Shown here: one piece after another, positions 34,538-63,286 of the stretch
Numbering within the stretch: the stretch's first letter is position 1
Layout: the number at the start of each line of letters is the position of its first letter
Source: Octopus vulgaris
Taxonomy: Eukaryota
NCBI GenBank assembly: GCA_951406725.2
Contig: OX597822.1
Location: forward strand, 30,008,001-30,072,000
Length of the DNA: 64,000 nucleotides
Reading direction: 5' to 3'
Notes under the pieces: generated by a model
The model's input: only the letters and a program-made list of their open reading frames with translations
What the model was told of the DNA's origin: nothing
Database searches by the model: none
Program-made: the position numbers and the translations under genes

Positions 34538-35923
34538 ATGACGTTTTACACAAATATTCCTTTCTATGACACATTGGGTTTTGTTTGTTTTTACCATGGC
34601 ATGCCATTTAATTTTCGAAACGTTTTCATAATGGCAAGAACTTCACATTCTGAAAAGGAATTGTTCACTCGTTTAAGAAGTTCTTCACCAAGCAGACTTT
34701 CGTTTCAAGGCATATTCTCGGAAATAAAATCGGGGAAGGTCTTAGGTTATCAACTCCAAGTGAAGATAGAACACGAGCAATTAACAATTATATCTTATTC
34801 CATAGAAGGTCGTACTAAAGCAGAAACTATTCCACTATCGCATGTTTGCCTGGATATCTTTGACGAAGAGACACGAAGATTTTGTATACATTTTAGAAAT
34901 GGTGGATTAAGAGTATTTCAATTGTGTGTCAATAAATCAAAGTCTCCACATTATACCTGGCGAGATCTAGTCACTGTTATAAGATACCTTTCCGTCCGTA
35001 AGGTGAAACCCTTGGTTGGCAAATCTGTTGAACTTTCAACTCGTATTACTTGCTCGGAAACAGCACCGGGAGCGCTTTTCTCTCGTCATCATATTGATCA
35101 AAATATTATATTTGAATATTTTTTCGTCGAACTTAATCTCAAAGGTATAGGAATTAATCAGTTGTACCTTGGTCTCACAGACGAGTTTTTTCTTACAGCA
35201 TCGCAGACTTTGAATTACTTGACACTGCAAGAACAAATTCCTTTACAAAATATCACAATTTTTATAATAAGCCATTCTTTTCGAAGAATAGGTGTTTTTA
35301 TAAAAAACAACACTTTCAGAATATTCGAAATGTGTAATTTTAGTGAAAAAGACAAAAACCTGATATACTGGAATAAGCTCGTTGATATAATAAACTTAAA
35401 AGATCAAGACGCACCAAACATTAAACACACATGTTCGGATAAATCTTTATTAACCACTATCCATTCTAAAGATTCAGGTGTAAACACAGACGGAAATAAT
35501 AACGTCTATTTCGGTGACTCAGAAGACCAACCAGATATTGATTTATTAACAGATATTCAATACCTATTTGAACTGCGAGAGGATGAAAGGTACTCTGCAA
35601 CGTTTACCGATAAAAAGCCGCAATATTTTGTTGGCGCTTTTTGGAATACGTCACACGAAGCGACTCGCAATTCTCTGTTGCGTAAATGGGCCTCCTGCCC
35701 AGAAATTCACAAATGTGCTCCAGTGTCAAGAAATATTGTTGAAATGGTGCCTAGTATAACAAAATCATCTTCTTTTACATTTATAGGCAGTGACAACGAA
35801 AACTTGAATCTTTGCATTCAATGTTCCTACGATGAATTTGTCGACGAAATCAACGATAACACCCTGTTGGCCTTGAGTAGAAAGATCATGCTAGTGCAAG
35901 GTTATAAAAAGGATATTAAAAAG
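34538..35923 (+). CDS. Coding exon 1: two PH-like/GARIN(FAM71)-like repeats plus linker
   Basis: 468-aa non-repeat ORF; phase-0 donor AAG|GTAAAT at 35924. The start may be ATG 34538, 34597 region or 34631 (MARTS). Confidence 0.8.
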
Positions 35924-36706
35924 GTAAATACCTGTTCATATTAATTTTATTCCGTTCAGTTTTCTGCACCCTTAACATGGTCCCACTGTTTATTCCAGCA
36001 ACTGGGGGTAAGAGGAGGGTGACCCCCTTCGGTCATGAATGACCATGGGATTACACCTAGAAAGTTACTCTCCGAGGCACAAATCCGGGTTAGGCTGTTT
36101 ATGGAAGACTAGCAGTCGCCCATACATATCAGTCTCAGTTCTCCATGCCACTGATGTTGTCCAAGGCAAAAGCAAAGGGGCCGATACAGCTTAGCACCAG
36201 TGACGTCGCAACTCATTTCTACAGCTGAGTCAACTGGGGCAACGTGAAATAAAGTGTCTTGCTCAAGAACATAACACGCAGTCCGGTGCGGGAATCGAAC
36301 TCACAACCTCACGATCGTAAGCTTTAACCACTGAGCCATGTGCCTTCACTCCAGCAACTACACCTTACTCTAAAGATTAGCATCTAGCTCCTTTCTCCAC
36401 CAGTAATTCCACAAACCACGCTTGGCATTTATCTTTTTTCATGTTATTACATAATAATTTCATGTTATTACATAATAATTTCATGTTATTACATAACTGA
36501 CTTCACAGTTTGAGTATTCATAACTTATTGGGAATTCTTAAAAACAAAACCCTGTGTAAGACAGTTCGGTATTCTCAATAAATGCGCAAAAACCGTTTTA
36601 AGGGCTACATACTTTGTATTGTTGTTATTGGATTAGCGAAACAATTATGAGAACGGAAACCAAAGGATAAGCCCCGCTTTCCCGGGAATTCCCGGGTACG
36701 TCAGCT

Positions 36707-62800: not shown

Positions 62801-63286
62801 TCACTGCCCCTCGTAATTTATCTCAACACTTAGAAACCATTTATTTCATAAAAATAACAAATTTAATGTTTAAATAAATATATTTATATGCATTTTTCAT
62901 TTTGTTTTGTTTTAGAGCATCACATTGTTCAAAATTCGAACCGCTCCGCTCTGAATCTACGGGATAAAATGAGATCAAAGATAAGGGAAATACTTCTGAA
63001 AAAGTTCAAAGGGAATTGTTCAGCTACGAGTCTTGATCAGACTTTATATAACTTCTATAAAATCAAAGGTGGGAAAAGCTGTTCCTCAGCATATTTCGAT
63101 CTCTGGAACTGCTCCCTTTGTGGTAGTGATGTTTGTATCTACGCTGATCTTCCTCAGTCTTTACTTCTATGCTTTCAGAAAGCAGCAAACTGTTACACCT
63201 TTCAAAGTCAATATAACGTCAGAATGTTTCTGAAATCCTACATTTTCACAGAAATGGAAAAATTGTTTACCGAAAGTAAAAATTAA
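34538..63286 (+). CDS. Multi-exon gene: tandem PH-like (GARIN/FAM71-like) domains plus a split, divergent RasGEF (CDC25) domain, ~1560-1600 aa
   Basis: Phase-consistent GT-AG chain: 34538/34631..35923, 38453..38511, 39869..39930, 43996..44083, 46793..46925, 49330..49458, 54262..54395, 56470..58756, [61023..61122], 62671/62678..62716, 62916..63286. CDC25 motifs appear in the correct order. Confidence 0.8.
36004..36349 (-). mobile_element. CORE-type SINE (OR-like), intronic
   Basis: Reverse complement of the 18645..18985 family; TSD TCCAGCAACT at 35994 and 36350. Confidence 0.85.
36681..36708 (+). mobile_element. Isolated Helitron-type 3' terminus (a similar one lies at 38330..38357)
   Basis: CCCGGGAATTCCCGGG hairpin, then 8 nt, then CTAG|T. 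Confidence 0.55.
36940..38048 (-). mobile_element. Degraded mariner transposon
   Basis: ORF 36996..37313 has [40 protein letters not shown] (YSPDLAPSDY-like); TIR-like TCCGGAAAACTTTTGACA at ~38031. Confidence 0.7.
38453..38511 (+). CDS. Exon 2 ([19 protein letters not shown]), phase 0 to 2
   Basis: ttgtatAG| and |GTAAGT. It is the only candidate I found that reconciles the phases of exons 1 and 3. Confidence 0.6.
38658..38965. repeat. Compound (TTG)n/(TTC)n/(TCC)n tract
   Basis: Read directly; mostly polypyrimidine on the + strand. Confidence 0.95.
39078..39495 (+). mobile_element. Two Meta-domain-like SINE copies
   Basis: Heads at ~39078 and ~39285; core CTTTCATCCTTTCAGGGTCGATAA. Confidence 0.75.
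39869..39930 (+). CDS. Exon 3 ([21 protein letters not shown]), phase 2 to 1
   Basis: Strong polypyrimidine tract plus tAG|; |GTAAGT donor. Confidence 0.7.
41313..41648. mobile_element. hAT-like MITE
   Basis: Termini CAGTGGTTCTCAA and TTGAGAACCTTG; subterminal GGGGTCCATAGA motifs. Confidence 0.5.
42362..42698. repeat. (TCTA)n/(CCTA)n/(TCTG)n compound microsatellite
   Basis: Read directly from the sequence. Confidence 0.95.
43996..44083 (+). CDS. Exon 4 ([30 protein letters not shown]), phase 1 to 2
   Basis: tatttcAG| and |GTAATT; open in the required phase. Confidence 0.7.
44822..45270 (+). mobile_element. CORE-type SINE (OK-like), full length
   Basis: Head, CCTTGGGCAAGTGTCTTC CORE block and tail are all present. 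Confidence 0.88.
46040..46205 (-). mobile_element. Short PLE-like element with a hammerhead variant, inserted in the (TA)n of a SINE
   Basis: Minus strand reads CCGATGA-agggatat..-GAAA-cagctg-TA-agac; same family as 59341..59465. Confidence 0.6.
46793..46925 (+). CDS. Exon 5: start of the RasGEF domain
   Basis: [29 protein letters not shown] matches the CDC25 pattern LxxIDPxELAxQLTLxxxxLFxxI; tttccAG| and GAG|GTAAGA. Confidence 0.85.
47335..47735. repeat. (TATG)n/(CATG)n microsatellite
   Basis: Read directly. Similar tracts occur at 40800-40965, 49500-49935, 56080-56230 and 59780-59950. Confidence 0.95.
47733..48570 (-). mobile_element. Mariner transposon relic
   Basis: ORF 48110..48370 has [35 protein letters not shown]; downstream frames give ENARPH and [15 protein letters not shown] motifs. 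Confidence 0.8.
48588..48900 (-). pseudogene. RTE-like LINE C-terminal fragment
   Basis: [42 protein letters not shown] resembles the RTE C-terminus. Confidence 0.55.
48962..49210 (+). mobile_element. CORE-type tRNA SINE
   Basis: A/B boxes present; TSD AATATGTGAAATT at ~48949 and ~49223. Confidence 0.8.
49330..49458 (+). CDS. Exon 6: RasGEF domain
   Basis: [43 protein letters not shown] matches PNIxxxIxxFNxxSxWVAxEILxxxxxxxRxxxIxxFIK; tgtgcAG| and AAG|GTAAAA, phase 0/0. Confidence 0.85.
50375..50587 (-). mobile_element. Meta-domain-like SINE
   Basis: Full head and core. Confidence 0.8.
51400..52110. mobile_element. PLE-like fold-back remnant interrupted by an OK-like SINE (51684..52016, minus strand)
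   Basis: 51458..51499 is an imperfect reverse complement of 52051..52093. A degenerate hammerhead lies on the minus strand at ~51535..51575 (TTGAAGTG-gtcaca/tgtgac-GAAA-gc-TT). Confidence 0.5.
53730..54092. mobile_element. Fold-back PLE-like element (~160-bp arms) with a hammerhead in each arm
   Basis: 53731..53892 is an imperfect reverse complement of 53931..54091. Plus arm: cct-CCGACGA..GAAA-cagctg-TA-agg (53938..54020). Minus arm: cct-CTGACGA..GAAA-cagttg-TA-agg (53802..53885). Confidence 0.7.
54262..54395 (+). CDS. Exon 7: RasGEF core
   Basis: [35 protein letters not shown] matches IAxxCxxLNNFNSxxAIxxALxSxxIxRLKKTW; tttgaAG| and CA|GTACGT. Confidence 0.9.
56470..58756 (+). CDS. Exon 8 (762 codons): RasGEF YR..PYIPW motif followed by a long insert
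   Basis: [37 protein letters not shown] matches LxxLxxxxxNYxxYRxxLxxxxxxPCIPFLGxFL; ctaacAG| phase 2 and CTG|GTAAAT phase 0. Confidence 0.85.
57659..58228 (+). repeat. Coding 30-bp/10-aa degenerate tandem repeat, 19 units
   Basis: [30 protein letters not shown] .. [30 protein letters not shown] .. [10 protein letters not shown]. Confidence 0.8.
58948..59127. mobile_element. Mariner-derived MITE
   Basis: Imperfect TIRs TTCAGGACTGCTAAAAAGTTCC and GGAACTTTTTAGCACCCCTTGAA. Confidence 0.6.
59347..59398 (+). ncRNA. Type I hammerhead variant (CCGAUGA core, GUA triplet) in a short PLE-like element (59341..59465)
   Basis: gtct-CCGATGA-a-gggatatta/tagtatcct-a-GAAA-cagctg-TA-agac. Confidence 0.65.
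60533..60867 (+). mobile_element. CORE-type SINE (OR-like)
   Basis: Full length; 13-bp TSD AGTTGTAATAGTT at 60520 and 60868. Confidence 0.9.
61023..61122 (+). CDS. Candidate exon 9 ([33 protein letters not shown]), phase 0 to 1
   Basis: tattctAG| and G|GTTAAT; open frame, GC-richer than its flanks. It would join acceptor 62678. Confidence 0.5.
61823..62410 (+). mobile_element. Meta-domain-like SINE multimer
   Basis: Head at 61823; internal junction AAAGAAATAG|GTATTTC at ~62038; a third degraded unit follows. Confidence 0.8.
62671..62716 (+). CDS. Penultimate exon ((FL)[13 protein letters not shown]); alternative acceptors at 62671 (phase 0) and 62678 (phase 1)
   Basis: G|GTAAGT phase-1 donor matches the phase-1 acceptor of the last exon. 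Confidence 0.65.
62916..63286 (+). CDS. Terminal exon with the RasGEF C-terminal motif
   Basis: Strong T-rich acceptor. [36 protein letters not shown] matches xxFQxxxYxFxxxxxIQxFLxxxxxxxExxLYxxS; TAA at 63284. Confidence 0.8.

Follow-up and report, generated by a model that had tools for sequence, protein, structure and literature searches.

A spliced Octopus vulgaris gene joining two predicted PH-fold repeats, probably remote kin of the Rab2-binding domain of GARINs, to a CDC25 domain split by a long insert

The 64,000-nucleotide (nt) stretch of the Octopus vulgaris genome analyzed here (assembly GCA_951406725.2, contig OX597822.1, positions 30,008,001 to 30,072,000; hereafter the window, whose numbering is used throughout) raised the question of whether a single gene joins N-terminal repeats of the GARIN/FAM71 type to the CDC25 domain of a Ras-family guanine nucleotide exchange factor (GEF), and whether such a protein would still activate a GTPase. 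A database search with exon 1 retrieved RefSeq XP_036362857.1 ("uncharacterized protein LOC118765226", Octopus sinensis, 1582 amino acids (aa)), which is identical at 1579 positions, with three amino-acid differences. When this protein was fitted to the window, it described a single gene on the plus strand with ten exons (34538-63286), nine GT-AG introns and one open frame of 1582 aa. RefSeq thus already holds a model of the gene that a first-pass annotation, made from the DNA letters, had called hidden, and the 10-11 exons in consistent phase that it had counted are a fair estimate because an in-frame candidate of 216 nt (62501-62716) would add an eleventh exon.

Exon 1 (34538-35923, aa 1-462 of the RefSeq model) carries both PH-fold repeats and most of a linker, which continues through exons 2 (38453-38511), 3 (39869-39930) and 4 (43996-44083). 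The CDC25 core begins at aa 536 in exon 5 (46793-46925), extends through exons 6 (49330-49458) and 7 (54262-54395), all three placed by the RefSeq fit and Pfam, and ends in exon 8 (56470-58756, 2287 nt), which also encodes the first hairpin helix and most of a long insert. Exon 9 (61023-61122) belongs to the same insert, and exon 10 (62916-63286) encodes its end, a Cys motif, the C-terminal CDC25 helices and the stop codon.

The continuity of these exons was checked in sequencing runs selected by their match to exon 8, four of which aligned to exon 1 and four to exon 8 (5 of 24 runs), so that the cover of exon 8 in them is a matter of choice because the runs were found with that exon. Three of them (X15, X17 and X18) belong to one study. 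The joints read directly were those of exons 1-2, 7-8 and 8-9: the exon 1 contig in X15 and X17 (two of the four runs) stops at 35923 and continues with the first letters of exon 2, the exon 7-8 joint was present in all four runs, and the exon 8-9 joint in three of four. A contig of X17 (4123 nt, depth 637.3) aligned to exon 8 over its positions 1-2198 and to exon 1 over positions 2804-4092, the two alignments being taken as one contig because run, length, depth and strand agree, and the 605 nt between both parts, within which exon 3 falls, are the exact sum of exons 2-7. A contig of X18 (4774 nt) extends 1883 nt ahead of exon 8 and 604 nt beyond it, which fits the whole gene with or without the extra exon. 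Exon 1 through exon 8 therefore form one spliced transcript, which links exon 1 to the RasGEF exons in a single gene, as the first-pass annotation had proposed. The loose 5' ends of 31 nt found on two contigs had no match within 204 kb around the gene, and the low or absent exon 1 cover in runs X1 and X2 was not used as evidence.

Some details of the model deserve attention. The translation start is probably the ATG at 34631 (Met32) rather than position 34538 as first annotated, because the tandem paralogue described below and another octopod protein begin at the equivalent of Met32; the exon 1 contigs begin at 34635 and 34650, and contigs are unable to show a start. The candidate cassette exon at 62501-62716 (plus strand, 216 nt, 72 aa) is unproven; it has AG/GT ends and a single genome match, it leaves the frame open to give 1654 aa, and it is skipped by the database models examined, while the X15 and X17 contigs break off precisely where exon 9 ends, which is what branching would produce. 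Another candidate of 49 nt (43540-43588) was rejected, being absent from the database models and shifting the frame. Inside exon 1, a GT-AG stretch of 642 nt (35145-35786) corresponds to the 214 aa missing in isoform X2 of O. bimaculoides; splicing it out would take away the greater part of repeat 2, and the X15 and X17 contigs read straight across it.

The two repeats of exon 1, each of about 100 aa and 24-25% alike, lie at aa 53-153 (repeat 1, 34694-34996, plus strand) and aa 188-288 (repeat 2, 35099-35401, plus strand). A profile of the N-terminal domain of related proteins, built without octopus sequences, matched repeat 2 with 44.6 bits and repeat 1 with 21.3 bits (the highest scores among 500 shuffles were 4.3 and 9.3, respectively), repeat 2 being the nearest to the single N-terminal domain of the family. 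The AlphaFold model of repeat 2 (mean predicted local distance difference test, pLDDT, 86.7) shows seven main strands and a C-terminal helix, the top Foldseek rows for it are PH domains, and its best VIA match is Trio (Z 10.9, root-mean-square deviation (rmsd) 2.4, 104 residues aligned). In the model of the whole paralogue both repeats reach a pLDDT of about 90, repeat 1 has the strand and helix order of a PH domain, and tandem-PH structures match. Both repeats are predicted from these models to adopt the PH fold, which agrees with the tandem PH-fold repeats first read at the N terminus. Neither of the two results that the first-pass annotation had named as fatal to its reading, a lack of spliced sequence linking exon 1 to the RasGEF exons and a lack of any PH/GARIN-fold match for the repeats, was observed. 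The structure matches are to generic PH domains at 6-20% identity, no particular PH family being prominent, and the named Atlas look-alikes among the matches listed are PH-type families (RME-8, myosin TH1, syntrophin, IRS and GRAM) with scores of 0.81-0.90, which serve as leads only. The weak Pfam matches of the octopus repeats were Myosin_TH1 and bPH_3, and a search of PDB sequences with the repeat profiles gave chance matches only (E 0.37 or worse). Further along, in the disordered linker, a run of basic residues followed by SCP (about 35670-35720, aa 380-392 approximately) forms a short motif kept in both paralogues, which we take to resemble a kinase or 14-3-3 site.

The relationship of these repeats to GARIN was analyzed with the Pfam profile PF12480 (GARIL_Rab2_bd, cut-off 22 bits). 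When 27 domain fragments (23 from relatives plus four octopus repeats) were searched against 24,736 Pfam models, PF12480 matched 11 of them below its cut-off (best E 0.0013); 13 other families were matched once each, Myosin_TH1 and bPH_3 among them, and the PH model PF00169 never. At the homologous site, five of the 34 relatives searched whole were also matched by PF12480 (20.1 bits and E 0.00071 at best), the matches spanning profile positions 1-62 or 2-62 of 71. This pattern favors remote homology over a generic PH signal, the link to the octopus running through its relatives, and as far as sequence comparison goes the repeats are likely distant relatives, by common descent, of the GARIN Rab2-binding domain. 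GARINs bind RAB2 through their N-terminal domain, are enriched in testis and are required for sperm-head shape in mice (PMC11236154, PMC8602946, in their available text), and the accessible part of PMC8602946 describes no other functional domain in FAM71F1, whereas the octopus domain is doubled and joined to CDC25. The protein thus appears to resemble GARIN in one domain and is not filed as a GARIN: of the GARIN/FAM71-like character initially given to the repeats, the distant link through relatives stands and membership in GARIN does not, the octopus proteins having no PF12480 match. No GARIN chain was found among the PDB sequence or fold-search matches, which does not exclude a likeness. The genome contains a Rab2 gene (G000:C4:16459250-16481670) with seven exon matches over residues 16-212, nearly identical to other animal Rab2. 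A complex prediction of repeat 2 with Rab2-GTP, in which a metagenome Rab2 nearly identical to the octopus exons was used, scored 0.00; run without alignments and with an uncertain partner fold, it has no bearing either way.

The second half of the protein was compared with known RasGEFs. Pfam PF00617 (RasGEF) covers aa 545-715, encoded by exons 5-8, with 76.6 bits (cut-off 23.1, E 2.9e-21), and its match ends inside the first hairpin helix. The remaining segment of a CDC25 domain appears to lie some 800 residues further on: the final 43 aa, encoded in exon 10 (63155-63283, plus strand), match the family's C-terminal CDC25 segment (95% probability in hhalign; 9.0 bits with a hidden Markov model (HMM) against 6.7 or less in 500 shuffles), and the family tail in turn matches canonical CDC25 tails and that of RalGPS1. 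Compared directly with the canonical tail profile, exon 10 gave an hhalign probability of 8% and no HMM match; its identification as the CDC25 tail holds because the family tail bridges to the canonical ones. CDC25 motifs in exons 5-8 and in the last exon were thus recovered where they had first been noticed. In the model of the paralogue the two CDC25 halves are predicted to rejoin into one domain, residues 489-1114 aligning to RasGRP2 (Z 26.2, rmsd 2.5, 223 aligned), RalGPS1a (Z 25.5, rmsd 3.5, 225 aligned) and SOS1 770-1016 (Z of about 24). The absence of a REM domain, also remarked in the first reading, was borne out by PF00618, which had no match at E up to 10 in the octopus proteins and none in the 34 relatives; in the paralogue model the linker, where a REM domain would precede CDC25, has a pLDDT mostly below 50.

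Between both halves, at the tip of the hairpin, lies an insert of about 800 aa (aa 714-1519; 56618-63094, plus strand) formed by the rest of exon 8, exon 9 and the start of exon 10. The insert is rich in Ser, Lys, Glu and Asn and is predicted to be mostly disordered, as is that of the paralogue (pLDDT below 50), which has about 380 aa, and it is 79% identical to its counterpart in O. bimaculoides, compared with 90-96% for the domains. Some 20 degenerate repeats of 10 aa (aa 1065-1264; 57671-58270, plus strand), with self-similarity peaks at lags of 10, 20 and 30, lie within it; they are 84% identical in O. bimaculoides and were not seen in the paralogue. Of 30 relatives, 28 have 71-266 aa between hairpin and C terminus, and the two bivalves have 563 and 918. 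Just before the CDC25 tail, exon 10 encodes a Cys-x2-Cys-x4-Cys motif (63110-63136, plus strand) common to the octopus, bivalves and protein P0077, which in molluscs is possibly a zinc site. Neither the long insert that splits CDC25 nor the tandem paralogue had been mentioned in the first reading.

The insert interrupts the helical hairpin, the catalytic element that opens the nucleotide site of the GTPase (PMC13096032, available text). Through the PDB hits, the equivalent of helix H was aligned to Sos1 and RalGPS1 and placed at aa 696-713 (56564-56617, plus strand). The available text of PMC8623491 gives Phe929, Thr935, Lys939, Glu942 and Asn944 as hot spots of Sos and, citing Hall et al., polar contacts such as Thr935 as being of little weight; the octopus residues at these five positions are Trp, Asn or Arg, Ile, Trp and Thr, so that Trp occupies both the Phe929 and the Glu942 positions, and Pro708 lies within the helix. 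Among rows with a complete helix H, truncated rows having been dropped, an Asp at P+8 was present in 77 of 85 canonical sequences, in none of the three octopus sequences (which have His) and in none of 49 other family rows. An acid at the Glu942 position was found in 70 of 85 canonical rows compared with Trp in all three octopus sequences, whose helix has no Asp or other acid at all. Proline lies in the latter half of the helix in all three octopus sequences and in 20 of 48 family rows, compared with 1 of 85 canonical ones. In agreement with this, in the paralogue model the confidence drops and the helix breaks at the region of the hairpin proline. With a proline in its hairpin and none of the usual acids there, the octopus CDC25 domain is likely a pseudo-GEF scaffold, and a loss of catalysis in the octopus seems, from sequence, fairly probable. 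The activation of Ras-family GTPases initially ascribed to this domain is therefore not supported, the hairpin being degenerate and interrupted. The loss of the EDGN/INFxK motif was discarded as proof of inactivity on its own, since RalGPS1 lacks it too.

The gene has a tandem paralogue with the same domain order and about 12 exons (G000:C9:30086932-30132552), which lies outside the window, its start 44 kb downstream of exon 1, and corresponds to LOC106868254 (1114 aa) of O. bimaculoides, a species in which the layout of the gene itself was also found. The products of the two genes share 28% and 48% identical residues in their repeats, 50% across the CDC25 core and 45% across the tail. The database model P0003 (CAI9727601.1) was rejected as a chimera that fuses the RasGEF part of the gene with the paralogue's N terminus and tail. 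When a profile made from the two paralogues was searched against 1.84 billion representatives, it gave 1795 matches, of which the best 150 were examined, and the N-terminal profile built without octopus matched 32 of 145 non-octopus proteins, with one such domain each, the doubled repeat being seen in octopods only. The family members among ten proteins looked up come from Lineus, Tubulanus, Mercenaria, Mactra, Timema, Clastoptera, Lasius, Brassicogethes and Ischnura, and the ten are named only "uncharacterized", "hypothetical", "unnamed" or "Ras-GEF domain-containing". In a maximum-likelihood tree of the CDC25 core (37 rows), 21 family rows split from 16 canonical rows at 100/99, and the octopus groups with two bivalves at 97/84, in agreement with a FastTree of 138 rows. 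No row of this unrooted tree is an identified RalGPS. The octopus protein and its relatives in bivalves, nemerteans and insects apparently form an undescribed family; no paper on the gene, the family or the architecture was found in a search that left subscription literature mostly outside, and a survey of CDC25 phylogeny may list the group. Four further proteins on the family side of CDC25 (P0087, P0128, P0154 and P0072) have long hairpin inserts and no clear match to the N-terminal domain, and they suggest that the insert may be older than the GARIN-like domain.

Among solved structures, RalGPS1 ranks first in PDB sequence comparison with the family profile (130.9 bits, the next reaching 111.6), with the paralogue and with one nemertean member, which points to a REM-less CDC25 domain whose closest relative by sequence would be RalGPS. 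RalGPS1 and RalGPS2 (PDB 3qxl) are likewise REM-less, act as Ral GEFs and have a PH-fold domain; the profile match includes the C-terminal segment, and the core superposes at 2.3 Å over 167 columns. Nevertheless, RalGPS has one PH domain, at its C terminus (PMC8699646, available text), whereas the PH folds of the octopus protein are two and N-terminal and the protein ends with the CDC25 tail. RalGPS1 also keeps the Asp at P+8, an acid at P+13 and a short hairpin tip, whereas the octopus protein lost both residues and gained about 800 aa. SOS, RasGRF, RasGRP and Epac share the CDC25 fold (Z 24-26) and PF00617; they are, as is RalGDS, REM-CDC25 GEFs, unlike the octopus protein, which is without REM and the hairpin motif. 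In BCAR3/NSP (SH2D3) a non-catalytic CDC25 domain serves as a binding scaffold, but these proteins rank last among the PDB matches of the family profile (about 29 bits compared with 131 for RalGPS1), and no SH2 domain was found in the octopus protein. PsGEF, which shares the insect and mollusc distribution, is a C2-PDZ-RhoGEF protein acting on Rac, and the available text of its paper does not contain the term RasGEF (PMC2684095); none of the domains C2, PDZ and RhoGEF was seen in the octopus protein, and identity with PsGEF was discarded, both being unrelated.

The explanation that we tentatively prefer is that of a REM-less, RalGPS-related CDC25 protein whose likely GARIN-related PH repeats dock it on a membrane via a small GTPase and whose degenerate CDC25 domain is a GTPase-binding scaffold that does not exchange nucleotides. 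By analogy with GARINs, the repeats would dock the protein through a small GTPase for which Rab2 is the lead; the CDC25 domain might bind a GTPase of Ral or Ras type, or some other partner, without nucleotide exchange, the hairpin insert could be a long flexible arm used for docking or as a spacer, and a Golgi or acrosome location would be expected. Several observations weigh against this proposal. No PF12480 match was found on the octopus proteins or repeats, a search of the genome with this profile gave five weak matches, none above the cut-off and none at this locus, the relatives, which are not independent of one another, all stay below it, and GARIN is absent among the Atlas rows listed. 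The rejoined CDC25 fold comes from the paralogue model only, with an overall predicted template modelling score of 0.44, and the full-cover spliced contigs are all from one study whose tissue is not stated. Regarding the hairpin, Sos itself has Asn rather than Asp at P+8, RalGPS1 also is without the canonical EDGN motif, the octopus residue at the Phe929 position is still aromatic, such polar contacts as Thr935 weigh little in Sos, the helix of the nemertean members remains like that of RalGPS, and no region is better conserved than the CDC25 core (96% to O. bimaculoides), which suits an active enzyme as well as a scaffold.

These last points bear on the possibility, close to the model of the first-pass annotation and in our view rather unlikely, that the protein is an active REM-less GEF of the RalGPS type in which the insert would form a regulatory loop at the tip of the hairpin, the PH repeats setting the membrane for Ral (or Rap/Ras) switching. 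The complete CDC25 fold of the paralogue model, RalGPS1 as the nearest solved relative, the conservation of the core between octopus species and, at about 50%, between paralogues, the aromatic residue mentioned above and the nemertean hairpins with an acid at P+13 would all suit such an enzyme. However, the proline in helix H, the Trp in place of Glu942 and the lack of any helix acid in three octopus sequences, together with the loss of model confidence and the helix break at the hairpin, and a second hairpin helix that is short and preceded by the Cys motif, speak against it. It is unlikely, too, that the repeats are ordinary divergent lipid-binding PH domains whose GARIN signal reflects the shared fold only, with Rab2 uninvolved. 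The missing PF12480 match on the octopus repeats, their weak matches to Myosin_TH1 and bPH_3, the varied Atlas neighbors and the generic PH structures are consistent with plain PH domains, as is the binding of PIP2 (phosphatidylinositol 4,5-bisphosphate) by the PH domain of RalGPS2 (PMC8699646); nevertheless, PF12480 was the only model matched repeatedly, and its matches run along most of the profile. The proposal that two genes are present, one with exon 1 and one with the RasGEF exons, or that the locus is a decaying copy, is most improbable. P0003 omits exon 1 and fuses the RasGEF part with the paralogue, and a short O. bimaculoides isoform (P0004) lacks both repeats, but the single contig spliced from exon 1 to exon 8 (unless chimeric), the open frame of 1582 aa, a layout that the paralogue and O. 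bimaculoides share, and proteins from three phyla that each combine one N-terminal domain with CDC25 argue for an intact single gene.

A quite speculative proposal is that of an ancient, unrecognised animal family of GARIN-domain RasGEFs from which vertebrate GARIN/FAM71 would have arisen by loss of CDC25. The octopus member would then bind Rab2 on the spermatid Golgi and link acrosome building to Ral-type signaling, and the CDC25 domain of molluscs and insects would have become a pseudo-enzyme with hairpin inserts of up to 800 aa. GARIN descriptions in the available text of the cited literature concern mammals only, and a RasGEF family in three invertebrate phyla with a GARIN-related domain is a candidate for the origin of GARIN, with insect models in which it is testable. 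The family likely adds a missing class of animal CDC25 proteins, and the octopus gene offers a case in which, according to the paralogue model, the CDC25 fold would be kept although the catalytic hairpin has taken up hundreds of residues. Its value is limited for now, the octopus gene being already annotated, the GARIN link lying below threshold and the functions being inferred.

Upstream of the gene no clear neighboring host gene was seen in the window. The region contains broken retroelement-like frames at 5155-8426 (minus strand), 9047-11536 (plus strand), 19135-20750 and 24811-25509 (minus strand), labeled by eye as endonuclease, reverse transcriptase and GIY-YIG-like pieces. At 2420-3300 (minus strand), two identical open-frame copies about 558 bases apart represent a recent tandem duplication.

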